Source: an uncultured Gammaproteobacteria bacterium (GTDB lineage Bacteria; Patescibacteriota; Patescibacteriia; UBA9570; XYC2-FULL-38-9). From it: 64,000 bases of DNA. Where the stretch lies: contig CAYFNF010000005.1 of NCBI GenBank assembly GCA_964344485.1, positions 23,455 through 87,454 on the forward strand, written 5' to 3'. This document shows positions 5,812 through 57,963 of the stretch, piece after piece. Below the pieces are notes generated by a model, which worked only from the letters and a program-made list of their open reading frames with translations, was not told the DNA's origin and did not search any database. Every line of letters begins with the position of its first letter. Within the stretch, counting starts at the first letter, position 1. A program made the translations under genes and the position numbers.

Positions 5812-5873
5812 CGCGTCCGCACAACCGTTTGCGGCAATATTTAACTATATCTGATAAAAAAGGGCCTTCGACT

Positions 5874-6398
5874 CTACTTCGTTCGTTGGTCTTCGTGTTG
5901 TGCCTCCGGGGGCCACGATCCGAATCGCCGAGCGATCGCTGCTTGTACTGGTTCGCTGACCTCTTCCATTGGCCAGTGGTAGTATTGAGCACGGTAGTGT
6001 GCACTGGGGCACTCCACTCGTATACTCAACCATCGTTCAGGATTGTCGCTAGCGCGAGCAACCTCTACCAGTGCCTCATCGGTTTCGACTGGCCAAAGCA
6101 CAAGCCTATCGAAGATCGCATTCTTGAGCGTGTACATGCTGGAGACCGTGCTGTTATTGAACCGCAAGCGGCGCAAGCAGATCTGCAAGCCGTACAGCAT
6201 GGAGCACAGGAGCGTGAGTGTTCCAGACCTGGTTGGCGGGTTCCACCGCTCACTTCGCAATACGCCAGCTGCTTCGCCGGCATGCGTTCCAAGCCTGTGC
6301 AGCACCTCCCTGTTCGGATTGTGGCTGACGAGCAGCCCCTCTCTTGAAGCGTGGTCGAAGGCTCTCTCACACCGCTGCAGCACCGTCATTCCGTTCAC
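5874..6398 (-). CDS. Islet B: hypothetical protein (174 aa, GC-rich)
   Basis: GGAGGTG RBS just upstream (plus 6402-6408). GTG start at 6398 or ATG at 6389. Globular-looking sequence (DRLVLWPVETDEALVEVARASDNPERWLSIRVECPSAHYRAQYYHWP). GC ~57% against ~40% host. The other-frame ORFs are shadows. Confidence 0.5.
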   Translation of the reverse strand: MNGMTVLQRCERAFDHASREGLLVSHNPNREVLHRLGTHAGEAAGVLRSERWNPPTRSGTLTLLCSMLYGLQICLRRLRFNNSTVSSMYTLKNAIFDRLVLWPVETDEALVEVARASDNPERWLSIRVECPSAHYRAQYYHWPMEEVSEPVQAAIARRFGSWPPEAQHEDQRTK

Positions 6399-6484
6399 TG
6401 CACCTCCGCGTTGAATCTACATGGTGTTATGAGAAAGCGATCCTACACTAATGAATCTCACGACTATTGTCAATACTCTACTGT

Positions 6485-17127: not shown

Positions 17128-17697
17128 GTGAGTGACTTTGTCAGGCGCGTGACCACGGTCAAGGCGCCTCATGGTGAATACAGGTTCACGCTGCAGAGCA
17201 CGGTGCAGCGTCGCGTCGAAGACCTCGAGGGGGCCGAAGCGCAGGCTGCGGTTCGTCGCATGCTGGAAGCGCTCGGAGTCTCCGAGGAACACGCCAACCA
17301 GATGCGTACGAACGACCTGCGAAGTGCATGCGAGGTCAAGCCGTTCCAGATCGATCATCCGGCGCAAGACGCGTACATCAACATGTCGGATCCGGCTCGT
17401 GCATCGGAACGAGTGGCCGTACCTCCCTCAGGTGGCTGCGTGCGTGCAGGTAGCGGTGCTCAAGTCGACGTGCCGCCTGGTTGTTCCCGTGTGGGCGACC
17501 AAGTGGCACCGCAGATGCCACCGCCAGCGCTCGTAGCTCTCTCGCAGAGTGCTCGGCCTGCTACCGCAGAACCGCACCTCCCGCCGGATGCGCTCCGAGA
17601 CGGCCAAGCCGTACCCGTACTCGACCCACAGCCTGTGGGACGATGGGCGCGCTTCTGCGCCTGGTGGCACCGACAGCGTCGGTCATGGGGTTGGTAG
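17128..17697 (+). CDS. Islet C: hypothetical protein (GC-rich; C-terminal half low-complexity, possibly frameshifted)
   Basis: GGAGG at 17117-17121, 6 nt before GTG 17128. First ~100 aa look globular (EYRFTLQSTVQRRVEDLEGAEAQAAVRRMLEALGVSEEHANQMRTNDLRSACEV). The remainder is Pro/Ala-rich. Several overlapping shadow ORFs exist, so strand and frame are uncertain. Confidence 0.35.
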   Translation: MSDFVRRVTTVKAPHGEYRFTLQSTVQRRVEDLEGAEAQAAVRRMLEALGVSEEHANQMRTNDLRSACEVKPFQIDHPAQDAYINMSDPARASERVAVPPSGGCVRAGSGAQVDVPPGCSRVGDQVAPQMPPPALVALSQSARPATAEPHLPPDALRDGQAVPVLDPQPVGRWARFCAWWHRQRRSWGW

Positions 17698-17748
17698 CCC
17701 AAGCGTGAACGCGCTGCTCTGACCGAGTCGGAGGAAACCGGTCTTTTT

Positions 17749-18723
17749 TTATTTCGAAAGAACTTTCACGTAGTATCCTTGCGACATTCTCTCCAAGAAC
17801 TTCTGATTATCTTTTTGAATAGACTGGTCAATTATGGACAGCCGCTGTTTTTGCCCTTCATCTACAACATATGGATCCACTACTCGAATCTTCGGTTTCA
17901 CGTGATAATCATAATCTGATGCATCTTCTTCAATAGATAGATTCTCCATATCGCTTAGCAGCTTCTTAATCTCTTTGTTATCAGAGCGCTTCATCTTTTT
18001 ATGTACCGCCTTATCTGTTGTGAACAAGTCTTCAAATGACAGAATCCCTTCTTCAATCGCGAGCTTCATAGCAGAGGCAAGCAAGTAGTACAACGCAGAC
18101 TGCAACGGGTGCGCCCATAGCTTTTCATTGGCAATACGGTACGCTTTTGTGAACTGCTTGGCTGCTTCAGTCTTCGTGAATACAATATCTCCGTCTACAA
18201 CTGAGAGGGCTTCCAACAATTCCTGTGCTTGCTGAACAGTTATCTGCTTGTCTACTACACAATCACGAAAGAAGTAATCAATGCGATCTGCGCACAGATC
18301 AGGCAGCTCTCGCTCGGCTAGAGGAAATGCACTTTTATCCAGTAGCTCCCACACAGAATACCCATGATCCTTTAACATCTTCGGGACCTCTGAATCAAAG
18401 ATGATTTTCTCTTGAAACTTTTCGTGGAAGGTCTGAGTGGTATCTTCAAACACAATGTCTGATACATGGGAGAACGCGGTGTGTGGAACATCATGCAGCA
18501 ATCCAAAGATCTGCTCTTTGACCGGCGCTTGAAAACGCTTGAGTAAATAATAGACACCGACGCTATGTTCGAATCGAGACGTCGTTAAATGTGGAAATCG
18601 AAAGATCGATGCGCCATATTGGTTCACATCTTTCAAACGCTGGATGGGCTTGCTAGATATCAACGCTTGAATGACTGGCTCATCTACAGTAAATGCTCCG
18701 TAAATGTTGTCGGTGTACTCCAT
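17749..18723 (-). CDS. HD-domain phosphohydrolase
   Basis: RFEHSVGV ... LLHDVPHTAFSH metal-binding H..HD..H..D pattern. Confidence 0.75.
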   Translation of the reverse strand: MEYTDNIYGAFTVDEPVIQALISSKPIQRLKDVNQYGASIFRFPHLTTSRFEHSVGVYYLLKRFQAPVKEQIFGLLHDVPHTAFSHVSDIVFEDTTQTFHEKFQEKIIFDSEVPKMLKDHGYSVWELLDKSAFPLAERELPDLCADRIDYFFRDCVVDKQITVQQAQELLEALSVVDGDIVFTKTEAAKQFTKAYRIANEKLWAHPLQSALYYLLASAMKLAIEEGILSFEDLFTTDKAVHKKMKRSDNKEIKKLLSDMENLSIEEDASDYDYHVKPKIRVVDPYVVDEGQKQRLSIIDQSIQKDNQKFLERMSQGYYVKVLSK

Positions 18724-25813: not shown

Positions 25814-25963
25814 CAGCGCTCACTTCAGAAAGCCCCTGCCAACGCGCAGGGGTTTTTTAATTTGCACAGACTCCACAGGATTGACAAATGCATCCTGTGC
25901 TGTATACTTGGACGATTTCCTCAAGAAGAGGTAAATCAGAGCCCCAAGTCCAGGAGGGACACT

Positions 25964-26420
25964 ATGGCTCGAATCTTGATGCTCGCCGCGCTCCTGCTCG
26001 TCACCGCCTGCAAAGACAAAGGTGACACCGACCGGGGCCTGCTGGCCATCAACCACATGGGCTACACGGTCAAGGTCTGGGTCTACCAGTCCTACGACTC
26101 CACCGGAGAGCAACAGCTGTGCGTGGACCAGGACCGAACAGCAGCTCACGAGCTCCTCAACGCTCCAGGACCAGGAAGAAGATGACCTGGAGTGGGATCC
26201 CGAGGACGAGGTCGACCTGTCCGCGAACTGCGACACGGAAGACACGTCCACAGTCTGCCCCGAGGAGTTCACCCCGTGCATCATCCTGCGTGTCACCGAC
26301 ACAGAGGGCAACTGGGACGTCAAGTCCGACCCAGCCATGTGGTACGACGGCATCATCTGCCTGATCACACCCGCAGACAGCGGCGACTCCGAGCAAGGCG
26401 ACGGCATCACCTGCGGCTGA
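25964..26420 (+). pseudogene. Islet D: lipoprotein gene split by a frameshift (N-terminal lipobox part 25964-26185, acidic Cys-rich C-terminal part to 26420)
   Basis: AGGAGG (25952-25957), 6 nt, ATG 25964. MARILMLAALLLVTAC lipobox. The frame ends at 26185, while the +1 frame continues with the protein-like LQDQEEDDLEWDPEDEVDLSANCDTEDTSTVCPEEF...ITCG to 26420. Both halves are GC-rich. Confidence 0.45.
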
Positions 26421-26480
26421 ACCAACGACTGGAACAGCTCGCACCCAGCGTGCATGAATCCGTCGGGCGCTAGAACGCAC

Positions 26481-26517
26481 GCGCCACGGACCAATGCTCT
26501 TTTTTTATTGCCGAAAC
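26481..26517 (+). repeat. 38-nt direct repeat, copy 1 (gcgccacggaccaatgctctttttttattgccgaaac)
   Basis: Near-identical to 31473-31510 (1 indel, 1 substitution). Both copies are on the plus strand. Confidence 0.7.
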
Positions 26518-26556
26518 ACCCTTCGTATCACGCTGAACGTTCCACCGATCTCCCGA

Positions 26557-27480
26557 CTAACTTTGGATTGCTGCTGTGAAGTCTTGTTTGCTTATATTTC
26601 CCCCGGATACAATACAAACAGCCGTATTGTATTTTTTCTCATCTTTATTGACAGCAGCATACGCTATTGCTCCTGCACCTTCAACGATCTCCCCTGTCTT
26701 CTCATATATCTCTTTCATGCTGCTCTTAATTTCTTCTTCTGTGAGTAATAAATAGTAATCCACATAGTGCTTAACCAGATCAAATGTAATAGTCTGTGGG
26801 TTTAAATTCACTGCTAGCTTCTCTGCCTGGGATGTGCGTACTTCTACTGGAGTGATTTTTTCATACTCTACAGCAGACACCATAGCGTGCATTGCTTGCG
26901 GTTGCACCCCAATAACTTGAATATCAGATTTCAATTTCTTAATAGCGATCGCGATACCTGCAATTAAACCGCCACCGCCAATTGGTACATACACCGCGCC
27001 TATGTCAGGTAGTTGCTCAAGCAACTCTAGCCCAATCGTTCCCTGTCCCGCAACCACCTGCTTATCATTGTACGGATGAATAAAGTGAATTCCTTCCTTT
27101 TTCGCGTACTCTTGCGCATATTGCTCGGTTTCAGCAAATGTATCAAGGCCATGCATAACAGTGTCAACAAGCTCTTTCATTTTTGCTTCACCTGCCTTTG
27201 GGGGATTCTTAATCATCATGCAAATGGTTTCAATTCCCAACTGTTTCCCAATATACCCAACTGCAAAACCGTGCGTCCCTAAAGCGGAAGTCATCACCAC
27301 CTTATCAGTCATGGCAGTCATGGCACTAGCTGCGCCTCTTATTTTAAACCCTTTCACAACCGGTTGCGTATTTTCCAACTTTAAAAACACCCCATCTGAT
27401 ATTTCATTTACTGCTGTCTTGTTAATATAGGGTTCAATCCTTTTTTTTGCTTGTTGTATGTCCGTATACTCGACTATCAT
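26557..27480 (-). CDS. PLP-dependent threonine dehydratase / serine racemase family enzyme (fold type II)
   Basis: KGFKIRGA PLP-lysine motif, glycine-rich GGGGLIAG loop, SGGN near the C-terminus. 307 aa (catabolic TdcB / EutB-like size). Confidence 0.8.
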   Translation of the reverse strand: MIVEYTDIQQAKKRIEPYINKTAVNEISDGVFLKLENTQPVVKGFKIRGAASAMTAMTDKVVMTSALGTHGFAVGYIGKQLGIETICMMIKNPPKAGEAKMKELVDTVMHGLDTFAETEQYAQEYAKKEGIHFIHPYNDKQVVAGQGTIGLELLEQLPDIGAVYVPIGGGGLIAGIAIAIKKLKSDIQVIGVQPQAMHAMVSAVEYEKITPVEVRTSQAEKLAVNLNPQTITFDLVKHYVDYYLLLTEEEIKSSMKEIYEKTGEIVEGAGAIAYAAVNKDEKKYNTAVCIVSGGNISKQDFTAAIQS

Positions 27481-28406
27481 ATTGATATCTTACTTATAAT
27501 ACTCGCGGCTAGTGCAGCGTCTGTTACTGGCAATCCATGATGCTTGAATACTATACGCATATTCTTCTCCACTGTATCATCTTTGTTTATCACCGATCCT
27601 ATCTCGCCTAATACCTCCACTGTATAATTCTCTTGTTTCGCAATATTCACTTCATCATACATAGGTAAATTCTTTTTCGCATCCAAAATGACAGCTGAAC
27701 TTCCAATTGTTTCTGCTGGAATCTCTTGGTCATTCTTCATAGCTCCCACACCAATAATTACAACATCATCTTTTACATCACCGTGCTTAAACACAGGGGT
27801 TTTTGACGTTGTTGCACAGACAATAACATCTGCTTTATGTACTGCTTGCTTGGAATCATCTGCTGCAATCACGGTGCCTTGCTCCACTTGTGATTCTATA
27901 TAAACAGCGGCTTCCTCACGGTGTTCTTTTGTGGGACTATAAAGAGTGATGTCTTGAATGCTTGGAAACAACTGTGCCAAGATAACACCGTGTGACCGTC
28001 CTTGCACTCCAGTTCCTAAGATTGCCAATCGTTCTGGTTCATTCGCGAGATGTTTTACTCCAACAGCTGAAGAAAGTGCTGTTCGAACTGACGCAAAATA
28101 CCTTCCTTCAATAATAGCTAAACAGACACCGGTTGTACTATTAAATACAAGTATATATGGATGCACACTAGGTAGATCGCGTTGCTTATTATTCCTAAAA
28201 TCACTTGCTTGTTTTGAAATAAAAAAATCTGTCCCAGTGATATACGAAGGAAATGAATAGAACATCCCATCATTTACTTCCATGGAAGTAGTTTCAGGAG
28301 TAACTGTATTACCCGCAGAAAAATCAGCGTAACTTTGTTCTATAAATGTATACGCTTCTTTAATGTCGACAATTTCCTCTACTTCTTTTTCTGTGATAAT
28401 TCTCAT
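27477..28406 (-). CDS. Ornithine cyclodeaminase / mu-crystallin family protein
   Basis: Rossmann LAILGTGVQGRSHG motif and OCD family architecture. ATGA overlap with the downstream PLP gene. Confidence 0.8.
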   Translation of the reverse strand: MRIITEKEVEEIVDIKEAYTFIEQSYADFSAGNTVTPETTSMEVNDGMFYSFPSYITGTDFFISKQASDFRNNKQRDLPSVHPYILVFNSTTGVCLAIIEGRYFASVRTALSSAVGVKHLANEPERLAILGTGVQGRSHGVILAQLFPSIQDITLYSPTKEHREEAAVYIESQVEQGTVIAADDSKQAVHKADVIVCATTSKTPVFKHGDVKDDVVIIGVGAMKNDQEIPAETIGSSAVILDAKKNLPMYDEVNIAKQENYTVEVLGEIGSVINKDDTVEKNMRIVFKHHGLPVTDAALAASIISKISI

Positions 28407-29542
28407 TACACTTTGTGCATACTAATATCTTGTATGATTCGCTGTAATTCCTTTAATGCGGTGTCTAGTTCTTCCTTAGTTGTAAAACGTGATAACGATA
28501 ATCTAATATTACCATGTATGTACTCCATAGGGCAGCGAATCGCTTTCATAACATGAGAAACATCCGTTGAGCTGGATGAGCATGCTGATCCCGTAGAGAC
28601 ATAGATTCCTTTCTTATCTAGTTCCTCTCGCACCTGCTCGCCCTCTATCATAAATAGCGATAAGTTAATGTTATTACATAAACGCTTCTCTCCTTCAGGG
28701 CCGTTCAATCGAACTTTATCATTCTGCAAGATTTTCTTAATAAATACATCACGCAATTCGGTAATCTGCTTAATTCCTAGAGTTGATGCATTGTTTACAG
28801 CTGCTGCGAAACCAACAATGCCGGCAATGTTTTCAGTTGAACTTCTCACTCCTGCTTCTTGTCCACCACCATGCAGCAACGGATCTAATTGAATTCCTTC
28901 TTTCATGTACAACGCACCTACTCCCTTTGGACCATGAATTTTGTGCGCATTGATAGTCATCATGTCGATCCCGTCCGAAGTCACATTGATAGGGACCTTA
29001 GTAAAGCTCTGACAAGCGTCTGTATGAAACAATACGTCCTTACTTTTACAGATCTTACTTATCTCTTGTAGATCTTGAATGGTTCCAATCTCATTATTCC
29101 CATGAATAATAGAGACAACCATAGTCTTGTCGGTAATTGCAGCTGACAATTCTCCACAGTCTATAAATCCTTGCTCGTCAACTTCCAAATAGGTTACTTT
29201 CGCTCCTTGCCCTTCTAACCATTCACACGTATGTAAGATACAATCATGCTCAATGGCGGTTGTTATAATATGATCCTTCTCCGGATAATGACGGAAAAAT
29301 AAGCCTTTCAAAGCGAGGTTGTTTGCCTCAGTGCCACTTCCTGTAAAGAAGAGCTCTGTGGCTTGCGCTCCAATGCTTGCAGCGATTGTAGACCTAGCTT
29401 GATCGATCGCTTTTTTTGCTGCTTGCCCCATCTTATGAACTGAGGAAGCGTTACCGTACTCATCTTCGAGATACCGGTCCATCTCCTCTTTCACTCGCGG
29501 ATCAACTATGGTTGTCGCTGCGTTGTCAAGATATATTCTCAT
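28406..29542 (-). CDS. Class-V aminotransferase / cysteine desulfurase-like (NifS/IscS/SufS family)
   Basis: SGHKIHGPKGVGALYMK PLP-lysine motif, GGGQE, C-terminal RLSLSRFTT. Confidence 0.85.
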   Translation of the reverse strand: MRIYLDNAATTIVDPRVKEEMDRYLEDEYGNASSVHKMGQAAKKAIDQARSTIAASIGAQATELFFTGSGTEANNLALKGLFFRHYPEKDHIITTAIEHDCILHTCEWLEGQGAKVTYLEVDEQGFIDCGELSAAITDKTMVVSIIHGNNEIGTIQDLQEISKICKSKDVLFHTDACQSFTKVPINVTSDGIDMMTINAHKIHGPKGVGALYMKEGIQLDPLLHGGGQEAGVRSSTENIAGIVGFAAAVNNASTLGIKQITELRDVFIKKILQNDKVRLNGPEGEKRLCNNINLSLFMIEGEQVREELDKKGIYVSTGSACSSSSTDVSHVMKAIRCPMEYIHGNIRLSLSRFTTKEELDTALKELQRIIQDISMHKV

Positions 29543-30282
29543 ACGGATTGCATATCAAAACTTGTTACCACCTGGTCTTTTAACATATAGACATTGATAA
29601 TGTTTAAATTATCATAGAAATACTTTGCGACCACCCGCCCTTTTTCTATTGCAAAATAGTTAGGAATATTTATTTCATTTTCAGAATCCACATAGTAAAA
29701 ATTTAAGCTTGAGGTGAATCCATCTTGCTTATGTTGATATGCATACGCGGACATAATTAATGGACATGCTGCAATACCGTACTTATCATTCGGATTCGGC
29801 CGCGACAATGTAATACGCCGGCCATCAACGGGATTGATAAACCAATAAGCATCACTTTTTAATTTAATATAATCAGCTTTGGCTTTTATTTTTTTTAGGA
29901 GTTCTTTTTTTCCGCGATTTCGCATGTGCTTCTCCCAATATATATTTAGCTCTTCATGCGGGATCTCATATAAATCCATCAAGTCTATATATTCAGGAGG
30001 GGGGACATGATTTTCTATTACCTCATCTGATTTTATATTGCATACTTTCTCCTTTGCATCACATACACCACCCATATTATTAATCAAAACACCTAGACCT
30101 ACCTTCTTTCCTTTTTTCTTTGCTAAAGAATACATCTTTAGCGCTGCCTCGAATGAATCTATTGTTCCTTGATTCATATTCGCGCTTCCGTCAGACATCA
30201 CCATATAGTGTCCGCCAGTAATTATCATATTGTCTGTTAGGCTCTTCTCAAATTGCTCTTGTTTAAACTTATTCATATTCAT
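29539..30282 (-). CDS. Hypothetical protein, first gene of the 4-gene operon
   Basis: 247 aa. No recognised motif beyond TGGHYMVMSDGS. Its stop overlaps the aminotransferase start by 4 nt. Confidence 0.55.
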   Translation of the reverse strand: MNMNKFKQEQFEKSLTDNMIITGGHYMVMSDGSANMNQGTIDSFEAALKMYSLAKKKGKKVGLGVLINNMGGVCDAKEKVCNIKSDEVIENHVPPPEYIDLMDLYEIPHEELNIYWEKHMRNRGKKELLKKIKAKADYIKLKSDAYWFINPVDGRRITLSRPNPNDKYGIAACPLIMSAYAYQHKQDGFTSSLNFYYVDSENEINIPNYFAIEKGRVVAKYFYDNLNIINVYMLKDQVVTSFDMQSV

Positions 30283-30407
30283 TTATTAATCCAATAATAT
30301 TATCAATTCGTAAAAAAAATGTCAAGTGGAATTACGTTTAGCAAAAAATAGTATTTATATTTTTGTATTTTGCTCTATACAGTTAAATAAAATGTGATAA
30401 TCTGCTA

Positions 30408-31469
30408 TTGATTTTGACAAATGCACTATTTCTTGCTATTATTATGACAATACCTCAAAAAATAAAAATAGAAATTAGCACAATGCTCGATCTTGACCGA
30501 TTAGATAGGCAAATACTCTCACTTCTAGACCAAAATGGTAGGTTTTCGGTTGCTGAAATAGCGCGTCATCTAAATGTATCGCGACAGCTAGTAAATGTTC
30601 GATTAAAAAAGCTAGAAGCGAATAACGCGATACTCGGTTATTATACCATCTTTGATAGTGGAAAGGTTGGTTACTATATATATCGAGCGTTAGTTCGTCT
30701 ACTAAATATCTCTCCTCAACAAAGAGAAGAGATCTTAGCATATCTACAACACCACCCACATATCATGTGGTTGGGTGAAATTGGTGGAAGCTGGGATATT
30801 ATGATGAATTTTATCTGCCGTGGTCATATAGACTTTAATGAGATAGCAGAAGAAATATCAGAGAAGTTTGGTGCGTTCATAAATAAGATGGAAATTCTTG
30901 TATATGTTGATATTCATGACTATTCTCGTTCGTACCTTGATCCAGAATATCCAGTACGGAAAGAGTTCTACCATCGTATGCAGGAAGACAAATCAATAGA
31001 GCTAGATGATTTAGATAGAAATATTATCGGAATGATTTCCACTAATGCGCGCATTGAGTACACGGCATTAGGCAATCAACTTCAGGTATCAAGAAATACC
31101 GTAAAAAAAAGGATTGATCAATTAATACAGAACAAAGTAATACTAGGTTTTCGCGCCTTTCCTAATATTGCGGAGATAGGATATCAATCTCATGTATTAT
31201 TGCTTGAAATAACAAAACTAGATCCTGAGAGAGAAACAGAACTATACTATTTCCTACAAATGATTCCGCAAGTAACATTTGTAGTGAAGCACTTAGAACG
31301 ATGGAAGGTAAGCGTGGAAATTGAGACAGTTTCAAATCGCGAATATCAAGAGATCCTGCAAAAAATTCGCTCCAACTTTAGTGACATCATCAGCGATTAC
31401 GATACCTTCCCACTTCTCAAAGACTTAGTAGTAAATTATTTTCCAAAAGGCATTTTGGAGCAGGGGTAA
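30408..31469 (+). CDS. Tandem Lrp/AsnC-family transcriptional regulator (two HTH_AsnC + RAM modules)
   Basis: LDRLDRQILSLLDQNGRFSVAEIARHLNVSRQLVNVRLKKLE and a second LDDLDRNIIGMISTNARIEYTALGNQLQVSRNTVKKRIDQL HTH. Divergent from the operon. Confidence 0.75.
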   Translation: MILTNALFLAIIMTIPQKIKIEISTMLDLDRLDRQILSLLDQNGRFSVAEIARHLNVSRQLVNVRLKKLEANNAILGYYTIFDSGKVGYYIYRALVRLLNISPQQREEILAYLQHHPHIMWLGEIGGSWDIMMNFICRGHIDFNEIAEEISEKFGAFINKMEILVYVDIHDYSRSYLDPEYPVRKEFYHRMQEDKSIELDDLDRNIIGMISTNARIEYTALGNQLQVSRNTVKKRIDQLIQNKVILGFRAFPNIAEIGYQSHVLLLEITKLDPERETELYYFLQMIPQVTFVVKHLERWKVSVEIETVSNREYQEILQKIRSNFSDIISDYDTFPLLKDLVVNYFPKGILEQG

Positions 31470-31472
31470 ACT

Positions 31473-31510
31473 GCGCCACGGACCAATGCTCTTTTTTTTA
31501 TTTCCGAAAA
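31473..31510 (+). repeat. 38-nt direct repeat, copy 2 (gcgccacggaccaatgctcttttttttatttccgaaaa)
   Basis: Begins 4 nt after the regulator stop codon. See copy 1 at 26481-26517. Confidence 0.7.
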
Positions 31511-31537
31511 AAAACCGTTGTTCCTGAAACAGGAAGC
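31505..31537 (-). terminator. Terminator of the islet E gene (ttcctg-aaa-caggaa then T9 on minus strand)
   Basis: Stem 31521-31535. The minus-strand continuation is caacggttttttttt. Confidence 0.5.
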
Positions 31538-31551
31538 GAACGGTGAGAACG

Positions 31552-31944
31552 CTACGGGGTGGTGTCCGGACGCAGGTCAGCGATACGCTGCTGCGTGGGC
31601 GGATGCATCTCGGTGAGCTCCATGAGGTGCTCCCACACCTCCAAGGTCATGGTCGTGCCGCCCATCAGACCAAGCACGAACTGCTCCTTGGTATTCATCC
31701 GGATGCGGATGTTCAGGTACCGGCCCTGGCGCCAGACCCGAGTGATCGATGCGTAGCTGTACTGCCCGAACATGACCTGATGCAGTACACGCATTTCGAG
31801 GTCGAACACGAAGATGCTGCCTGCATCAGCGTAGATCACGGTCCGTGCTTCTGCACGGAACAGCAGCCAGTCCACGGTGTGGAACGGCCGTACCACGATC
31901 TCGCGGATACCCCGTGCTCCCTTTAGGATGACGTCGTTTGCCAT
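31552..31944 (-). CDS. Islet E: hypothetical protein (130 aa, GC-rich)
   Basis: GGAGGAAG RBS (plus tcctcc 31952-31957), 7 nt before the ATG at 31944. Better amino-acid composition than the antisense 31543..31926 ORF. Confidence 0.5.
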   Translation of the reverse strand: MANDVILKGARGIREIVVRPFHTVDWLLFRAEARTVIYADAGSIFVFDLEMRVLHQVMFGQYSYASITRVWRQGRYLNIRIRMNTKEQFVLGLMGGTTMTLEVWEHLMELTEMHPPTQQRIADLRPDTTP

Positions 31945-31970
31945 TGGCTCTTCCTCCGGTGGTTGCGTAG

Positions 31971-32014
31971 ATAAGCAAAAGCGCCTCCCTGCAGGGAGAC
32001 GCGTTCTTGCTTAT
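31971..32014. promoter_or_regulatory. Long (~19-bp, interrupted) palindromic hairpin upstream of the islet E RBS / downstream of OCD-2
   Basis: ataagcaa-aa-gcgcctccctg|cagggagacgc-gtt-cttgcttat centred on CTGCAG. It could be the OCD-2 terminator or a leader structure analogous to the islet A hairpin. Confidence 0.4.
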
Positions 32015-32214
32015 ACACACGACACATCCACTACAGGGGCTCTGTAGAGGATGAAGATGAAACAAATTGTCTTGTTTGCTTCGTATGCATGCACCTAGTG
32101 TATAGTGCTCAGCATATTTGTCAAATGGGCGTGATTTTGATTCACAATTCGCCACGTTTGCCCCATTATTAAGGCGTAATTGCACTCGCTCGATTTGTTG
32201 TTTCTAACAACACC

Positions 32215-33264
32215 TTACAATACTCTATCCAACGGTGCATATGATGGCTCTTCTGTGTAACAGACAGTCCGCTGCTCTGATTTTAAAAGAGTGAAGAGAT
32301 TTTTTGGGTCGTTCACTAGCGGCAAGACATCAATATGCGTACCGATCCCTTTCTCGTGAAGCAATCGAAGTATTGAGAAGTCAGCTAACGCAAACCCAAC
32401 AGAATCAAAGAGTATTAATTCCTTCCCTTGTCGCCCCTGCTTCTCTCCCTGTACTACTTCCCATAACTCGGAGTACTCTGGCTCGTGCTCCAAGTTTTGA
32501 ATCTCGCCTTCGTGCTTTGTTTGTTCATAGAACTCCACTACGATGCGACTGTTTCTCACTACTTCAGGATCGATCTCGGTCTTGCCTTCACAGTCTCCGC
32601 CCATGGCGTTTATAAACAACCCTTCGTGCTGTTGAATCGCGCTATACGGAAACAGCTCCACGTGTGCTTTTTCACAAATGCAGGTAGTCAGTATGTCTAC
32701 TCCTTTCACTACTTCCTCTCCACTCGAACAAGCGATCAAGTGAACGTCTTTCTCTTTCATGTTCACAGCAAACTTTTTCATTGCTTGTGTATCACGGTCA
32801 TAGTAGCGAATCGTATGAACGTCAAAGAGCTCCAGCATGGCCGTAACCTGGAACTCTGACTGCGCTCCAGTACCAATCAGCCCGAGTACTTGTGCATTCT
32901 TCTTTGCTAAGTACTGTGCTGCGATAGCAGACGTCGCTGCAGTTCGGAACGCTGTCAGAATGGTCATGTCGCAAAACAGCAATGGAAAGCCGGTTTCTAC
33001 ATCCGCGAGCATACCGGTTGCGACAATTGATGACTTCCCAAGCTCAGGATTTCCTGGATGGCCGTTCACGTATTTATACGAATAGAACTGTTCGTCAGCG
33101 CACGGCATAAGCTCGCAGACACCGTGCTTGTAATGCGTGACGTGACGAGGGCTTTTTTTAAATTCCTGCCACCGTTTCAGATCCTGCTCGAGATAGCGGA
33201 TGGCGTCAGTGAGTAGTTTTTCAGTTGTGAGTTGCGCAATATCCTGCGCGGTAATTATTTTCAT
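32215..33264 (-). CDS. Ornithine cyclodeaminase / mu-crystallin family protein, second paralog
   Basis: VLGLIGTGAQSEFQVTAM Rossmann motif, OCD-family length (349 aa). Confidence 0.8.
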   Translation of the reverse strand: MKIITAQDIAQLTTEKLLTDAIRYLEQDLKRWQEFKKSPRHVTHYKHGVCELMPCADEQFYSYKYVNGHPGNPELGKSSIVATGMLADVETGFPLLFCDMTILTAFRTAATSAIAAQYLAKKNAQVLGLIGTGAQSEFQVTAMLELFDVHTIRYYDRDTQAMKKFAVNMKEKDVHLIACSSGEEVVKGVDILTTCICEKAHVELFPYSAIQQHEGLFINAMGGDCEGKTEIDPEVVRNSRIVVEFYEQTKHEGEIQNLEHEPEYSELWEVVQGEKQGRQGKELILFDSVGFALADFSILRLLHEKGIGTHIDVLPLVNDPKNLFTLLKSEQRTVCYTEEPSYAPLDRVL

Positions 33265-33611: not shown

Positions 33612-33989
33612 ATGCATCTGCTTCTACTCGTTCAGACCGCGTGGTACCACCGGAGCCAGGTGGTGCAAGATCGCATTCGCCGACAATTCGACCGCAACGT
33701 GCCAGGCGTCGTCCTGCCTCGGGCCGTGGTCGGAGGTGACGATCAGCTCGACGAAGCGCTCGCTCGCGCCGCGTTCATCACGCTGCTGACCAGCATGACA
33801 GGCGACGCCAGCAGCTTCCAGGTGGTCAGCTACACCCTCGAGCGGCGTGGCGACGACGAGCTGTGCTTCACGTTCGACCTCGAAGAGTCCGGCTGGACTT
33901 TCAAGCGGCCACAGCCTGGTGCGCATCACGTCTCCACCATTCGAGTGCGACTCGTGGACACCAGCACGCTCGCTGTGGTCGAGGCCTGA
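33612..33989 (+). CDS. Islet F: hypothetical protein (125 aa; strand ambiguous)
   Basis: GC-rich ORF. The antisense 33624..33929 ORF also has a GGTGGAG RBS, so the coding strand is unresolved. A plus-oriented hairpin plus T-run (33554-33575) precedes it. Confidence 0.3.
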   Translation: MHLLLLVQTAWYHRSQVVQDRIRRQFDRNVPGVVLPRAVVGGDDQLDEALARAAFITLLTSMTGDASSFQVVSYTLERRGDDELCFTFDLEESGWTFKRPQPGAHHVSTIRVRLVDTSTLAVVEA

Positions 33990-34135
33990 CCCAAGGCTAG
34001 CAGTCCGGGTTCAGACCCACACTGCTCCTTGCAGAGCCGCATCCCACGCGACGCCATTTCTGTACAATCGACGTCTCGGCCTCTCGCGTTCTTTTTTATT
34101 ACAAAGCCGCGCACTTGATGGCGCGGCGCTTGTTG

Positions 34136-34146
34136 GCACCCGCACG
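34136..34146 (+). repeat. Degenerate duplicate of the tRNA-Glu 3-prime segment (gcacccgcacg + gaatcg..cc.gg)
   Basis: 11/11 identical to 34299-34309. About 24 of 29 nt are similar over the T-arm / acceptor 3-prime half. It lies 163 bp from the intact tRNA, at the edge of islet F. Confidence 0.4.
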
Positions 34147-34299
34147 AAGAATCGGTTCCGGGGTTGGCGGTAGCGTGCCGCTGGCACCCTACCGATCGTT
34201 CAGCTGCGCTACGCTTGCTTCACTTCCAACCCTTCAATTTCCCGCCGCAGGATAATTAAAGAAAATCCGCCCCTCTTTGAGGGACGGATTATTCTTAAG

Positions 34300-34371
34300 C
34301 ACCCGCACGGGGAATCGAACCCCGGCTGCCAGGATGAAAACCTGGTGTCCTAACCACTAGACGATGCGGGC
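34300..34371 (-). tRNA. tRNA-Glu (anticodon UUC)
   Basis: Reverse complement: GCCCGCA TC GTCT AGTGGTTAG GACA C CAGG TTTTCAT CCTGG CAGC CGGGG TTCGATT CCCCG TGCGGGT G. Anticodon loop TT-TTC-AT, discriminator G, no CCA. Terminator-like hairpin at 34262-34292. Confidence 0.85.
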
Positions 34372-39562: not shown

Positions 39563-40000
39563 ACGTTTTTTGTTATTAATTATTCCGCATGGAATTTAAA
39601 AATACCGTGCGTCGACAGTATATACGATATATAGAGCATTCTATTACAAAAACAAATGCCCCGCAATAATCAGCAGGCAAGAGAATGTATACACGGAAGA
39701 TTCGAGCCGTAGCCTGAATTTTCCGAGGTACACCTTCCCATGCTTGTCGTGCCTGCTGGTTACTATGGGGCATGACGTCAGCACCATTCTTATAAAAAGT
39801 AGCAAATTCACATCACAGAGTACTGCGATGAGAACATAGAAGAATATCATGGTTTTTCCGTTTTGTCAAGAGTAAATCATACACATGTTTTTCCCAGTTA
39901 AAAATGATATTTTTTAGCTAATATTAGGGTAAAAAAAACGGACGTGGTGAATGTCCGGGCTCATACTAGAGCCGTTGCCTACGTTCAGAGTCGAGGCGTA

Positions 40001-40942
40001 TCAGAGCCGACCTGCTGCACTCAGCACCGCGTGCAGGGTTCCGGTCGTGGAGACCGGGTTCTGCCACTGGACCCACCAGCAGTGTGCTTCGTCGATGCAG
40101 TGGTGATTGACGGTCGCGGACCGTTCTTGGCACATCATGCGCTCGTGCAGCCTCAGGGAGAAGATCGTGTCCTGAAGGCAGCTCACGATGTGTCGGGTAC
40201 CTGCCCAGCCTTCGCGACGCACTCGGGCGATCTCGGACTCTCCCCAGCCGTAGAAGAGCACCAGCTCCGGGAACAGGCGCGCTGAGTCGTTGGCCATGAG
40301 GCGCTCGTAGTCTTCGGCCAGGTCGCAGGGGCAGCCCGTTCCGGTGAACAGGTAGCGCACGGGCCAGCCCGTGTAGTGCATCCCTTCTCCGGAGGTCAGC
40401 GCGTTGAGAACACCCAGCAGCTCCGGGGTCGCACCCACCCACATCTTGGGCTGGGTCAGTGCGAACAGTGGGAAGTCCGGAACCGGAGCGATCTCGACCA
40501 GGTGCAGCGGGTTGATCACGGCGTGAAGCAGCAGCAGCTGCCGGCAGAGCAGCGCACCGAGCGAATGGCCGACCAGCGACACCTTTTGGTGCTCATCCAG
40601 AATGCCGTCCCAGTACAGCGACTCCATGATCGCGACCAGGTCCTGGATCTGCTCCTCCAGCGGTTGAGAGCCCAGGCCAGGCGGACGCCAGGCAGTCCCG
40701 ATCCCGTTGCGCTCCACCACCACGATGGTGTTGGGGAGCTCGTGGAGTTCAGTCCTGTTGATGGTCGTGCACCAGGTGGACCAGCCGCGTTGCTGGTAGC
40801 CGTGCACCAGCACCAGTGCCGGGCTCGTCTTGTCACCCAGGCGAGCATGCACCAGGCGCACACCCACCGAAGTGTTCAGCTCGTGCGTGTTGAAGCCCAT
40901 GCCTCCCATGGGCCTCGTGTCTCGACAGTGTTCCATCTTCAT
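40001..40942 (-). CDS. Islet G: alpha/beta-hydrolase (lipase/esterase, GHSxG nucleophile elbow)
   Basis: LVLVHGY oxyanion region and VSLVGHSLGALL nucleophile motif. GC-rich. Hairpin cggac-N9-gtccg plus T8 downstream (minus strand) at about 39950-39976. Confidence 0.75.
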   Translation of the reverse strand: MKMEHCRDTRPMGGMGFNTHELNTSVGVRLVHARLGDKTSPALVLVHGYQQRGWSTWCTTINRTELHELPNTIVVVERNGIGTAWRPPGLGSQPLEEQIQDLVAIMESLYWDGILDEHQKVSLVGHSLGALLCRQLLLLHAVINPLHLVEIAPVPDFPLFALTQPKMWVGATPELLGVLNALTSGEGMHYTGWPVRYLFTGTGCPCDLAEDYERLMANDSARLFPELVLFYGWGESEIARVRREGWAGTRHIVSCLQDTIFSLRLHERMMCQERSATVNHHCIDEAHCWWVQWQNPVSTTGTLHAVLSAAGRL

Positions 40943-42393: not shown

Positions 42394-43436
42394 ACCAAGC
42401 GCGACCCCCACATCCACAAGCACCTGCTGCACCCACAGCTCAAGGCGCTCCTTCAACTCCAGATGATTTTGCCGCAAAGCATCCAAAGCAGGACTTGTCA
42501 GAGCATAAGCCGCTCACCTTCCCGACTCAACGTCCGAATGAGCGGGTTATTCTGTTACTGCGACGTCACTGGACTGTCTTGGCACGAGATATCTCACAGC
42601 TCATTATGTCTCTATTGCTCCCACCGATCGTCATTATCTTGTTAATGAACTTCACTCCGATCTCTCTAGCTCCGGGCACAGCAACCTACGTCTTAGTAGT
42701 GCAAGGTCTTAGCCTCTACTATCTCTTCTCGTTTCTTGCGTACTTCCATGATTTCGTGGATTATCATCTAGATATCTGGGTAGTAACAGACCAACGTATC
42801 GTCTCTATTGAACAAGAGGGGCTGTTCCATCGCACAGTATCAGAGTTGAATATTGTGAAAGTTCAGGATGTGACTTCAGAGATAAAAGGAAAAGTGCAGA
42901 CCTTCTTGGACTACGGACAAGTTCATATACAAACCGCTGGTGAGCAAGAACGATTCTTGTTCGAACAGGTACCACATCCATCAGAAGTAGCGAAAGTCAT
43001 TCTACAAGTGCATGACCGCACTATGAAGATTCAAGATCTACAGAAAATCAGAGAAGAAGAAGAGTACCGACAACAGATGGAGCTAGAAGGACAAGTTCCT
43101 GTTGAGCAATATGTTCAGCAGCGCCAAGTGCAACCGGGCCAACACCACCCCCAAGCACAGCGCACACAGTTTCAACCAACGCATCAGCCAACATCGCAAG
43201 CGCCTGCGCAAGTTCGTCGTGTTGCACACGCTCCACAACCCACACCGCAAGCGCCTGCTCCTCAAGCTCCGCATGCCCCTGCTCCAACCGCTCCATCACG
43301 ACAACCACAGGCCCCGAGACCATACACTCCAGCTGCTCCAGCACAGCCAGCTCCGTATCAACCACGTACCGCACCGAACACCCCTCCACCACAACAGTAT
43401 CCACCTTCATCTCCACCACCGCGACCTGAACTATGA
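42390..43436 (+). CDS. Membrane protein with bacterial PH (YdbT/bPH_2-like) domain and Pro/Gln-rich C-terminal tail
   Basis: TM pair followed by DIWVVTDQRIVSIEQEGLFHRTVSELNIVKVQDV ... YGQVHIQTAG (bPH_2 pattern). C-terminal 100 aa is a P/Q/A repeat. Confidence 0.65.
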   Translation: MNQARPPHPQAPAAPTAQGAPSTPDDFAAKHPKQDLSEHKPLTFPTQRPNERVILLLRRHWTVLARDISQLIMSLLLPPIVIILLMNFTPISLAPGTATYVLVVQGLSLYYLFSFLAYFHDFVDYHLDIWVVTDQRIVSIEQEGLFHRTVSELNIVKVQDVTSEIKGKVQTFLDYGQVHIQTAGEQERFLFEQVPHPSEVAKVILQVHDRTMKIQDLQKIREEEEYRQQMELEGQVPVEQYVQQRQVQPGQHHPQAQRTQFQPTHQPTSQAPAQVRRVAHAPQPTPQAPAPQAPHAPAPTAPSRQPQAPRPYTPAAPAQPAPYQPRTAPNTPPPQQYPPSSPPPRPEL

Positions 43437-44506
43437 AAACCGAAGACTTTTCATTTGATCTTCCACCCGAGCTTATTGCTCAGCGTCCAGTCGAAGGAAA
43501 ACGTGATCAATGTCGATTAATGGTATTGAGCCGAGAGAAGCAGGCCATTGCACATCGGCACTTTTTTGAATTACCACAACTGTTGAAATCAGGGGATGTC
43601 CTAGTAATGAATGACTCTAAGGTATTTCCTGCACGCTTGATTGGACAAAAAGCCACTACAAAAGGGAAAGTCGAGGTATTATTGCTGCAGCGACAGCAAG
43701 ATAAGAGCGAAGATATCGCTGAAGTGTGGGAAGCGTTGGTTTCAGGGAAGAAAGTTTCCGAAGGCTTACCGTTAGAGTTCTTTGTAGAAGATAGCACTGA
43801 CGAGCCGTTGTTAAAAGCACGAGTCATTGAGCGAGCGTCAGATGATACATGGTATATCGATTTCAACCTTGCAGATGAACAATTTCGTGAAGCGCTAGAT
43901 CAACTCGGCCATACCCCAATCCCACCGTATATTAAAAGAACCCCGCTCAATGAAAAAGAGCTTCGGTCCGAGTATCAAACTGTATATGCAAAAGCCGAAG
44001 GATCTGCTGCAGCACCGACTGCGGGACTACATTTTACAGAAGACCTTCTTAAGCAGTTAACAGACGCTGGAATACAGCAGACGACCATTACACTGCATGT
44101 AGGGCTCGGTACTTTTTCTCCTGTAAAAGTGGATGACATTAACAACCATACCATCCATTCTGAGTATGCAATCATTACCGAGCAGACTGCTGAGATGGTG
44201 AATCAAGCAAAGATGCAAGGAGGTCGTGTTATTGCAGTAGGAACTACTGCTGTACGCGCACTAGAGACGTTTACAACTGACGGACATCTAAAACCAGGGC
44301 AACAATGGACCAATCTCTTTATCACTCCTGGATACTCGTTTTCTTGTGTAGATGCTATGATCACTAACTTTCACTTACCGCGATCAACGCTGTTAATGAT
44401 GGTAGCAGCGTTTTCAGACATGGATTTAATGACCGCCGCGTATACAGAAGCAATTGAACGAGAGTATCGCTTTTACAGCTTTGGAGATGCCATGCTAATT
44501 GAATAG
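43433..44506 (+). CDS. queA: S-adenosylmethionine:tRNA ribosyltransferase-isomerase QueA
   Basis: MKTEDFSFDLPPELIAQRPV N-terminus, collinear with QueA through to ...YRFYSFGDAMLI. Confidence 0.9.
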   Translation: MKTEDFSFDLPPELIAQRPVEGKRDQCRLMVLSREKQAIAHRHFFELPQLLKSGDVLVMNDSKVFPARLIGQKATTKGKVEVLLLQRQQDKSEDIAEVWEALVSGKKVSEGLPLEFFVEDSTDEPLLKARVIERASDDTWYIDFNLADEQFREALDQLGHTPIPPYIKRTPLNEKELRSEYQTVYAKAEGSAAAPTAGLHFTEDLLKQLTDAGIQQTTITLHVGLGTFSPVKVDDINNHTIHSEYAIITEQTAEMVNQAKMQGGRVIAVGTTAVRALETFTTDGHLKPGQQWTNLFITPGYSFSCVDAMITNFHLPRSTLLMMVAAFSDMDLMTAAYTEAIEREYRFYSFGDAMLIE

Positions 44507-44646: not shown

Positions 44647-45201
44647 ATGAGACTCTTACTGCTCATCGCAAGCATGATGCTCGTGGGGTGCCCCAAGCAA
44701 GCGCCCCAAGGACCGCTCCCCGGGGAGCACATGCCACGCGTACACGCGGAACCCGGCCCCACAGCCGGCGACTGCACGTCCGTGGTCACCTTCGAGTGGA
44801 CCGGACACCCGGACTACGACACGCTCTACGTGCTCATCAAGCTCGAGGGGCAGTACTTCGGTGTCGGGGCTCGCCTCGAGGAGCCGGACGTGACGTACGC
44901 GGCGTGCGTGGACTACCCGCTCAAGTGGCTCGGTGTCATCCAGTTCTACACCAACCCCCTGCCACCGGGCGTGAACATGAACCCGGACCCGCAGTGGGAC
45001 ACCATCCCGTGGTCCTACTACGGCTGGGAGCCGGCCACGTTCAAGCTGCCCTCGACTACGGTCTGGAAGCGTGAGAGGGGCGCCAGCGGCCACACTTCGG
45101 CCATGGTCAAGACCGAGGTCCCGGTCGGGCTGGTCATCCGCTTCTACCCCGGAGCGGAGCAACTCTCAACACGGCCCGGAATCCTCTACATGGAATTCTA
45201 G
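44647..45201 (+). CDS. Islet H: lipoprotein (184 aa, GC-rich)
   Basis: GAGGAGGA RBS 5 nt before the ATG. MRLLLLIASMMLVGC lipobox. The alternative-frame ORFs are shadows. Confidence 0.55.
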   Translation: MRLLLLIASMMLVGCPKQAPQGPLPGEHMPRVHAEPGPTAGDCTSVVTFEWTGHPDYDTLYVLIKLEGQYFGVGARLEEPDVTYAACVDYPLKWLGVIQFYTNPLPPGVNMNPDPQWDTIPWSYYGWEPATFKLPSTTVWKRERGASGHTSAMVKTEVPVGLVIRFYPGAEQLSTRPGILYMEF

Positions 45202-55181: not shown

Positions 55182-56993
55182 TTATTCTGTATCATTTAAA
55201 GACCCTTCGAAATCGTGAAATTCTAGTGGTACATTTGTGTATGCATCTGGGATAGGCAGCTTTCCATCACCATTAGGGTTATACCCATTTGCTGTCTCCT
55301 CTCCGTCTAGATATCCATCGCCATCGGTGTCTTCATTCAGAGGGTCTGTTTCATAAATCTGCTCATAATAGTCATCAAGCTCATCACCATCGGTGTCTTT
55401 TTTGTTTGGATCACTGCCAAATGCATCTTCTTCTAGATCAGTAAGGCCATCGCCATCGGTGTCTTTTTTAAAATCATCAACAAGGTCTTGCGGATCTGGC
55501 GAGATAGTATTGTCGATAGTCTTTGACATATCTGCAGCTATCGATGCAAGCACCTCTTCTAAGCTAGTATACTCAGTTGGGAGGTCGGTGCTCACTGCCT
55601 TATTGTGATCCCACAATTCTACAGTCAACGTGCTAGAGATCACGGTCGCACTGTCGTCCTCTTGTTTCTTAATTAACAGTTTATACGGTTGAAAGTCTTT
55701 TTTACCAACCCAGATCTCTCCGGTGAGAGTGTCGGTTTTCTTGGCAAAGTCAATCATATCAAAGACTTCGAGTGTTGGAGCAATACCAGTACGTTGTACT
55801 TGATCTAAAAATGCAAAGTACTTCTCTTGATCAATAGTGATATAGTAATGGCTGGTATTCGTTCCTTGAACTTTCTCTGAATTTATCTTATCTCCAAGAA
55901 CCACGAACGGATGTTGACGGAACGCTTCTTGAATAATAGTAATATCCTCTTGCTCGATTTCACCTTCTTCATCTTTAGAATCAATACCTGGAAGAGTGCT
56001 TGGTGGTAGTGTTGGGACCTCTAAGTCTTGGTCAAACCGTATCCATTGGCCCTCTAACATACCGAGGTCTGTACCCATGAACTCTGCATTATCAGGAAGT
56101 TCGCCAAGCTTTACGTATATTTCCCCGTTTTGATACTTCACTTCTGCATCTAAGGTAAATGGGTCCCCTTCAGTAAGAAGCTGCACGGTCGCTTGCATGT
56201 ATCCAGCACTTTGATCTGGGTCTAGAATAGTAGTAGCTCCTTGCGCTTGCAGTAGCAACCCATTTACTTCCTGTCCACCGAGTAATTCACCAAAGTCACC
56301 GCCGGATTGTGGTTTAAGCTGCTGTCGAATCTCAACAGAATACGATGCAGACTTCAGTGAAGCAGCGTTCTCAAACATCGAATTCGCAACTCGTTCTGGG
56401 GACTGGTAGTAATGATAGTAGGCATATACTGCTGACCCTGCGATTGCCACAAGTAATGCAATAATCACAACAAGTCCAATGATTTTAGTCTTTGTGCTTA
56501 ACCCTTCTTTAATTACTGGCTGCTGCGTTCCCCCTGATAGTGCTTTGCTTTTCGCTGGTTTCGCACTAGCTGCGCCGGGATCCATAGCAGGCTCTGCCAT
56601 CGGACCGAGCTGACCTGCCGGTGCCTGCGGCTGTTCAGCAGCTCCTGGCTGCGCACCGATATCAAAGATGTCTTCAGGCTCTCCAATGACTGGCTTTTGT
56701 GCGGGCGCTTGTGTCGCGGCAGCTCCTGGCTGCGCACCGTCAGCAGGCATCTGTACACCAAGGTCTTCTCCAAACGATGCTGGAGCTTGTGCATCATCAG
56801 CAGGAAGAGGGGGCAAGCCTGGAGTTGCTGGTGTCCCAGCGTCAGGTCCTGCTGCGATTCCAGCTTCTGCAAATGCCTCTTCGATGTCAGCTGCTTCCCA
56901 GCCGTTGCTCAGCAGTGCTTGGCGGATCTCCTCCGGATTCTTACCTTGCTGCTGTTGATTATTAATAAAGTTCTTTACTTCTAGACTAGTCAT
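55182..56993 (-). CDS. Membrane-anchored protein with Ala/Pro/Gln-rich linker and C-terminal thrombospondin-type-3 Ca-binding repeats
   Basis: Cytoplasmic N-terminal 40 aa, low-complexity APQ region, one TM, extracellular domain, then DTDGDGLTDLEED / DTDGDELDDY / DTDGDGYLDGEE repeats. Confidence 0.65.
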   Translation of the reverse strand: MTSLEVKNFINNQQQQGKNPEEIRQALLSNGWEAADIEEAFAEAGIAAGPDAGTPATPGLPPLPADDAQAPASFGEDLGVQMPADGAQPGAAATQAPAQKPVIGEPEDIFDIGAQPGAAEQPQAPAGQLGPMAEPAMDPGAASAKPAKSKALSGGTQQPVIKEGLSTKTKIIGLVVIIALLVAIAGSAVYAYYHYYQSPERVANSMFENAASLKSASYSVEIRQQLKPQSGGDFGELLGGQEVNGLLLQAQGATTILDPDQSAGYMQATVQLLTEGDPFTLDAEVKYQNGEIYVKLGELPDNAEFMGTDLGMLEGQWIRFDQDLEVPTLPPSTLPGIDSKDEEGEIEQEDITIIQEAFRQHPFVVLGDKINSEKVQGTNTSHYYITIDQEKYFAFLDQVQRTGIAPTLEVFDMIDFAKKTDTLTGEIWVGKKDFQPYKLLIKKQEDDSATVISSTLTVELWDHNKAVSTDLPTEYTSLEEVLASIAADMSKTIDNTISPDPQDLVDDFKKDTDGDGLTDLEEDAFGSDPNKKDTDGDELDDYYEQIYETDPLNEDTDGDGYLDGEETANGYNPNGDGKLPIPDAYTNVPLEFHDFEGSLNDTE

Positions 56994-57803: not shown

Positions 57804-57832
57804 CGCAAATCTCCTTGCTTAGGTGCAGCCGT

Positions 57833-57861
57833 ACCTTACGGGATTCTATTTTTTTCGTCAA
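57833..57861 (-). promoter_or_regulatory. Possible promoter of the islet I gene (TTGACG, 17 bp, TAAGGT)
   Basis: Minus-strand TTGACG (plus 57856-57861), 17-nt spacer, weak -10 TAAGGT (plus 57833-57838). Confidence 0.3.
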
Positions 57862-57864
57862 ATA

Positions 57865-57890
57865 TAAAACGCCCAAATGGGCGTCTTTGT
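57865..57890. terminator. Bidirectional terminator hairpin acgccc-aaat-gggcgt between tRNA-Ala and the islet I gene
   Basis: tataaaACGCCCaaatGGGCGTctttgt. Confidence 0.5.
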
Positions 57891-57963
57891 GGACCCGAGC
57901 GGAGTCGAACCGCTGACCTCCTGCGTGCAAAGCAGGCGCTCTAGCCAGCTGAGCTACGGGCCC
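57890..57963 (-). tRNA. tRNA-Ala (anticodon UGC)
   Basis: Reverse complement: GGGCCCG TA GCTC AGCTGGCTA GAGC G CCTGC TTTGCAC GCAGG AGGTC AGCGG TTCGACT CCGCT CGGGTCC A. G3:U70 Ala identity pair present. CCA not encoded. Confidence 0.9.

Follow-up and report, generated by a model that had tools for sequence, protein, structure and literature searches.

The 64-kb stretch of contig CAYFNF010000005.1 analysed here (the window, in whose positions all coordinates are given) carries a five-gene metabolic block at 26517-31472 that is enclosed by two near-identical direct repeats. The window is core bacterial chromosome of about 45% GC, with ValRS, YidC, L19, RuvB, QueA, TsaD, PilB-like, VanW and SpoIID domains and five tRNAs. 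The block itself is 4,956 bp long, has 35-42% GC per gene, and consists of four overlapping minus-strand genes and one divergently transcribed regulator.

The four minus-strand genes, which overlap one another by 1-4 nt, encode a pyridoxal phosphate (PLP)-dependent Ser/Thr-dehydratase-like enzyme (PALP; 26557-27480, Pfam PF00291, 1.4e-56), an ornithine cyclodeaminase (OCD)/mu-crystallin family protein (27477-28406, PF02423, 1.8e-40), a NifS/IscS-like class-V PLP enzyme (Aminotran_5, cysteine desulfurase family; 28406-29542, PF00266, 1.7e-82), and a 245/247-aa protein with no Pfam or NCBIfam family (29539-30282). The regulator is of the tandem (two-module) AsnC/Lrp type (30408-31469, plus strand); PF13404 matches it in two stretches, one for each of two AsnC-type HTH domains, NCBIfam AsnC/Lrp models match as well, and its start codon is uncertain. 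Promoter-like sites are found on both strands of the spacer between operon and regulator (30283-30407). Gene calls and domain matches confirm the content given for the block in a preliminary description of this DNA, i.e. exactly four coupled minus-strand genes plus a divergent tandem Lrp/AsnC regulator between the repeats. At the level of NCBIfam subfamilies, every dehydratase model that matches the PALP gene does so under its cut-off, as do all matches of the block OCD. The NifS-like gene scores 462 bits against TIGR03402, under the cut-off of 531, and 308 against PRK02948 (IscS subfamily), over the cut-off of 304.

The repeat has the consensus GCGCCACGGACCAATGCTC-T7/8-ATT(G/T)CCGAAA, with both copies on the plus strand. 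The left copy (26481-26516, 36 nt, T7 version) reads ATTGCCGAAA, the right copy (31473-31509, 37 nt, T8 version) reads ATTTCCGAAA, and the start-to-start spacing is 4,992 nt. The two align locally with 35 identical positions and two differences, a T7/T8 indel and a G/T mismatch (z = 23 against shuffles). Both copies open with the same 26-mer, GCGCCACGGACCAATGCTCTTTTTTT (26481-26506 and 31473-31498), and the differences are confined to the sequence 3' of it. The same-orientation, near-identical repeats with two differences reported earlier are thus borne out; the earlier start positions hold, whereas each of the end positions had included one extra non-matching base. When the copies are aligned together with 80-nt flanks the repeat borders are sharp on both sides, and alignment of the flanks detects no similarity between the two loci outside the repeat itself. 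The block fits tightly between them: the left copy ends 40 nt beyond the stop codon of the dehydratase gene, and the right copy begins 3 nt beyond that of the regulator.

Only these two copies occur in the window, even at three mismatches or when the GC-rich and AT-rich halves of the repeat are searched separately. The 26-mer has no match in 100 shuffled windows, which together with the alignment z of 23 rules out a chance origin of the pair. The right junction is reproduced in an independent assembly, a single-run megahit contig of 1,711 nt (L008, k127) that is 100% identical across regulator, right repeat and gene E, and so is not an artefact of the assembly of this genome. Exact matches of window proteins were confined to short ENA contigs, which cover the block interior and the right junction.

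Alone, the two copies fold at -2.9 and -2.2 kcal/mol, no better than shuffles and without a dyad. A dif-like site of an Xer-dependent element would be 28 bp long, with two partly palindromic recombinase-binding arms around a centre of 6-8 bp; in this respect the left copy has only the weak dyad CGGnnCAAT-N11-ATTGCCG, which the G-to-T change in the right copy breaks. A simple terminator scan called neither copy, and Rfam holds no family for either (whole window at the gathering threshold, both junctions at E <= 1). A self-contained hairpin or a known RNA is excluded as the identity of the repeat by these weak folds and the Rfam blanks.

Directly outside the repeats lie two GC-rich segments, 25940-26492 (about 60% GC) and 31529-32003 (about 58% GC), against a background of about 45%; the islets placed immediately outside the repeats in the preliminary description are therefore real. 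Each holds one gene, and the two genes are convergent. Gene D (25964-26420, plus strand) has a GC content at third codon positions (GC3) of about 0.8 and encodes a small lipoprotein-like product (MARILMLAALLLVTAC...). Gene E (31552-31944, minus strand; GC3 0.80) encodes a 130-aa protein of a small unannotated family, with about 15 relatives at 29-50% identity.

Each repeat copy fits the gene on its outer side. Gene D is followed by a terminator-like element (26452-26506, plus strand; -19.9 kcal/mol), a 14-bp interrupted hairpin with stems of 4 + 5 + 5 bp (GCAU/AUGC, UCCGU/ACGGA, GGCGC/GCGCC) and then UC and T7. The first 17 nt of the left copy form the 3' arm of this hairpin and the T-tract is also inside the copy, while the 5' arm (26452-26470) is unique D sequence outside the repeat. 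On the other side, the intrinsic terminator of gene E (31507-31544, minus strand; -13.2 kcal/mol) comprises a hairpin at 31514-31544 and then T8. This T-tract is the A8 at 31507-31514 of the plus strand, whose first three bases are the last three of the right copy; in the left copy the A run ends after AAA. With the sequence upstream of it (the 3' end of the regulator gene), the right copy reaches a best fold of -15.0 against a shuffled mean of -13.7, i.e. average. Hairpin plus U-tract, the form of an intrinsic terminator, is thus seen for the left copy in its context, and for neither the repeat alone nor the right copy. The earlier statement that the repeat is not a hairpin terminator holds for the repeat by itself but not for the left copy, 17 nt of which belong to the gene D hairpin.

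Both copies therefore run on into the sequence outside the block and are alien to the sequence inside it, the pattern expected of an insertion with duplication of the junction. Probably, though far from certainly, the terminator spacer between the convergent genes D and E took up the 4,956-bp block, and about 37 nt at the junction were duplicated. Before insertion the locus would have run from the D stop codon through 60 nt (with the 5' arm and loop of the hairpin), the 3' arm, T7-8, ATTKCCG and AAA, and then AAAAA with the E hairpin to the E stop codon. So rebuilt, the D-E spacer would be 139 nt long and hold an ordinary pair of back-to-back terminators (T8-ATTTCCG-A8). The portion from the 3' arm to AAA, about 37 nt, would now flank the block on either side, with the native left flank still joined to the left copy and the native right flank to the right copy. 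The same layout of hairpin, T7 and A8 is found in another genome (L025), in the spacer after a gene E homologue and between convergent genes. The D-E spacer resembles known back-to-back intrinsic terminators, as does that of L025, in having a hairpin and T-run followed by an A-run, and differs in being split by 5 kb with a part present twice.

In composition the block is an outlier among its surroundings. GC of its genes is 0.35-0.42 against 0.452 +/- 0.02 for host genes, and the correlation of its relative synonymous codon usage to that of host genes is 0.67, against 0.87 +/- 0.05 (minimum 0.67) in 200 random five-gene host subsets.

The genes of the block recur together in other genomes. The full five-gene module is present at 53-72% protein identity in L006/L007, of 33% GC, where it adjoins restriction-modification genes, and in L005/L010, of 49% GC, where it lies between tRNA-Arg and tRNA-His. 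In support of an insertion, the L006/L007 module too has a direct repeat at its two ends, different in sequence from that of the window and not a hairpin (27/33 nt, 0/500 shuffles, z = 7.4). A reduced module is carried by L009; its proteins share 64-68% identity with those of the window and its TsaD only 29%, a contrast that speaks for horizontal transfer. The pair formed by the 245-aa protein and the NifS-like gene is found in metagenome-assembled genomes labelled Chlamydiales, Verrucomicrobia, Peribacteria, Patescibacteria, Bdellovibrionota and uncultured bacterium. Judged from sequence, this distribution is that of a horizontally transferred module. No match to the module was found on known plasmids or phages.

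Because the block holds no recombinase, transposase or terminal inverted repeats, we infer the mechanism of the insertion, for which three candidates are ranked. The most likely would be that a recombinase encoded elsewhere integrated a circular form site-specifically (Campbell type), with an att-like identity segment as the result. Confinement of the differences to the part 3' of the 26-nt exact stretch fits a crossover within such a segment, and fits later mutation of the homopolymer equally. Less likely would be a long staggered break filled in during illegitimate insertion and, after that, RecA-type recombination on pre-existing short homology.

Recombination between the 26-nt identical stretches is predicted to remove the block exactly and re-create the D-E spacer, and the corresponding circular junction should read ...CAGGGGTAAACT, one repeat copy, and CACCCTTCGTATCACG.... 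For RecA-dependent recombination in E. coli the minimal repeat length is about 23-27 bp. As an identity of 26 nt is about this minimum, rare precise loss of the block is plausible. The perfect 26-nt identity, the direct orientation and the distance of 5 kb liken the pair to a RecA short-homology deletion substrate. The comparison, however, describes the present potential of the repeats and not their origin, and no deleted allele was found.

Several observations weigh against an insertion. No recombinase, integrase or transposase domain was detected in the block or in the open reading frames (ORFs) scanned in the window, and the block ends have no terminal inverted repeats (the best inverted match, 7 nt, equals the shuffle mean). 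No empty-site contig, circular junction or close relative turned up in the sequence collections searched, and 20-22-mers of the repeat have no exact match in 185,579 species genomes, JGI metagenomes and IMG/VR. A lineage-specific flanking gene has no relatives in JGI metagenomes and led to no syntenic relative. The count of two copies is that of the 64-kb window. The hairpin argument is suggestive and of moderate significance (p about 0.02-0.08), with pairing as good as that of the gene D hairpin in 47 of 2000 shuffled upstream flanks and in 119 of 1532 natural GC-rich 31-mers from the window. Codon usage of the block is shifted yet not extreme. Around the L005 module the repeats (p about 0.012) resemble a pair of similar terminators, the repeat around the L009 module is not significant, and in L016 a terminator-like intergenic element of 38-60 nt occurs three times around neighbouring genes. 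As for the att-like scar of a mobilised cassette proposed in the preliminary description, recurrence of the module in varied contexts, its atypical composition and the polarity of the repeats speak for it, but no recombinase, transposase or terminal inverted repeats accompany it.

The L016 element, with its repeated terminators flanking genes, also keeps alive a different explanation, namely that the repeat belongs to a dispersed intergenic family of repetitive extragenic palindromic (REP), miniature inverted-repeat transposable element (MITE) or terminator-like type, two members of which flank the operon by coincidence and with no insertion. Related uncultured genomes do carry such families (besides L016, several repeated hairpin elements in L021), and both copies sit between convergent genes, the usual place of these elements. 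At the right border of a further GC-rich segment of the window, segment C, the sequence of positions 17742-17760, tctttttttatttcgaaag, is like the AT-rich half of the repeat but for a single indel; this likeness could be a chance similarity between terminator tails. We consider a dispersed family unlikely, since there are only two copies in 64 kb, whether three mismatches are allowed or the halves are taken singly, and none in public genome, metagenome and viral collections. Moreover, unlike members of those families, the repeat forms no palindrome or hairpin by itself, and its borders match those of a compositionally distinct block.

Alternatively, the repeat could have a function in cis, either as a termination signal shared by the plus-strand genes (gene D and the regulator) or as a protein-binding site insulating the operon, with selection or gene conversion keeping the copies alike. 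Both copies do lie just downstream of a plus-strand stop codon and have a T7 or T8 run, and in each some upstream sequence can pair with the 5' half of the repeat. Selection for termination, however, would not hold 19 non-palindromic GC-rich bases identical with a wholly different pairing partner, and the fold of the right copy is no better than random. In addition, Rfam has no family for either copy and nothing similar to the repeat adjoins the module in relatives. A conserved cis element is accordingly given little credence.

Slightly less credit still goes to the module being a recombinase-less cassette that crosses distant phyla and duplicates about 33-37 nt of its target, through either a long-stagger integrase that acts in trans or an insertion pathway not yet described. 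Such a cassette would explain why the repeats of the window and of L006/L007 are similar in length, different in sequence and non-hairpin, as the window and L006/L007 would be independent insertions. A BLAST-based scan for flanking repeats around the core pair in other loci gave none that is significant, leaving L006/L007 as the one convincing case.

Least probable of all is an assembly artefact, in which DNA of a GC-rich organism and that of an AT-richer one were wrongly joined at a short sequence common to both. The source is a metagenome-assembled genome, there is an abrupt change of composition at the repeats, and independent assembly support covers only the right of the two junctions. Against an artefact, the single-run contig, built at a k far beyond the repeat length, matches 100% over 1,711 nt across that junction, the promoter-like and ribosome-binding sequences of the GC-rich genes lie in surrounding host-like DNA, and a second genome, with a similar background GC, has conserved gene E together with its leader.

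Insertion into the terminator spacer remains the preferred reading. Among known kinds, the nearest are small genomic islets that lack an integrase and end in att-like direct repeats. Cis-mobilizable elements (CIMEs) are elements that retain attL and attR but lack integration and transfer genes (PMC5704250). The block shares with them a cargo-only segment, direct repeats of a few tens of bases and the lack of integration or transfer genes of its own, as well as atypical composition and a cargo that is patchy across phyla and horizontally spread. It differs in that no partner integrative and conjugative or integrative and mobilizable element, nor an integrase of matching specificity, is visible in the window. 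Its target is an intergenic terminator spacer rather than the 3' end of a tRNA or conserved gene, no tRNA being present at either junction. Finally it is only 5 kb long and is trimmed to within 3-40 nt of the stop codons.

Target-site duplications of transposons are usually 2-15 bp long; casposons are among the elements with long ones. The repeat resembles such a duplication in being target-derived and continuous with the outer flank only in each copy, and in that the module of a second genome has a repeat of different sequence and similar length (33 nt). In contrast, the block has neither transposase nor terminal inverted repeats, and 36-37 nt is too long. From integron cassettes the block is set apart by its five genes with their own promoter-like sites and regulator and by a repeat without attC-type dyad, and no IntI-like gene was seen among the scanned ORFs of the window. 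The defining features of a classical integrase island, a transposon and an integron cassette fail, and the block is not assignable to any of them. The repeat appears comparable to an attL/attR pair or to a target duplication, and not placeable in a named family.

If the insertion is real, the locus shows in a clean and datable form how an uncultured bacterium received a whole metabolic operon with its regulator. The target would be a terminator spacer, the ends would have been trimmed nearly to the stop codons, and the scar would still permit precise loss of the block. The junction sequences give concrete targets with which raw reads can be checked for excised or empty forms. The islet is of an ordinary small kind with no recombinase in sight, and no new kind of mobile element is shown. 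Its value lies mainly in annotation and in flagging the module as horizontally mobile, and it answers no open question.

The 245-aa protein has a predicted structure with a predicted local distance difference test score (pLDDT) of 89.9. Foldseek matches this model to class I aminoacyl-tRNA synthetases (E 2.7e-07 to 1e-04, template modelling score about 0.5), and the predicted fold resembles the catalytic domain of that class (CysRS, ArgRS, MshC). Its homologues (P0001-P0068) have an invariant GGH motif and three invariant cysteines. In relatives, as here, the gene always adjoins a NifS-like gene and is translationally coupled to it. The protein may be a stand-alone cysteine-activating or -ligating enzyme, spread over the candidate phyla radiation (CPR), Chlamydiae and other phyla.

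Just outside the block, a second OCD-family gene (32215-33264, minus strand) encodes a bona fide ornithine cyclodeaminase (NF005762, 392 bits, cut-off 350), whereas the block OCD is of another subfamily, to which no name could be assigned.

In L006/L007 a partial third repeat copy is found one gene further out. Three related short sequences (L007 70-87, 2288-2320 and 7547-7586; the same in L006) separate the restriction enzyme gene, an HATPase_c_3 gene and the five-gene module. These extra copies may reflect stepwise accretion of cassettes at one site.

Segments C, D and E are among about eleven mutually unrelated GC-rich segments of 0.4-1 kb and 57-63% GC (GC3 about 0.8) in the 45% GC core genome. 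They lie at 460-1065, 5861-6410, 17143-17741, 25940-26492, 31529-32003, 33636-34290, 39938-40924, 44678-45179 and 57123-57880, and also at 43092-43449 and 56490-56961. Each appears to be a single gene; several open with lipoprotein signal peptides, and one alpha/beta hydrolase and one Crp/Fnr regulator are among them. Where examined (D, E and the starts of two others), promoter-like or ribosome-binding sequences lie in the AT-richer DNA outside the segments. There is no sequence similarity among the segments, which excludes that they are one repeated element carrying the repeat. The same pattern is seen in the relatives L005 and L025/L026, and the segments look like a lineage-wide feature rather than recent transfer. 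Three of them lie downstream of the 3' ends of tRNA-Met (1297-1371), tRNA-Glu (34299-34371) and tRNA-Ala (57889-57963), two within about 10-40 nt and that of tRNA-Met at about 45-230 nt, according to where the segment border is placed. The window contains no duplicated tRNA 3' end, so these segments are not classical att-flanked islands.

Gene D has a promoter-like site, TTGACA-16-TATACT, at 25881-25908. Its coding frame shifts at about 26080-26130, where third-position GC switches phase, and the gene is either a frameshifted pseudogene or affected by a sequencing or assembly error; a search with concatenated reading frames of the D region gave no matches.

A second genome, whose background GC is about 44%, has a gene E homologue in which GC is likewise raised and the leader conserved. 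In the window the leader of gene E is about 180 nt long (31945-32124, minus strand), has a near-consensus promoter (TTGACA-16-TACACT) and contains a terminator-like hairpin at 32002-31981 (GCGTCTCCCTGCAGGGAGGCGC + TTTTG). It matches no Rfam family. Its DNA sequence is conserved ahead of a homologue of 40% identity (L025 4767-5000), and it may be an undescribed attenuator or riboswitch-like leader.

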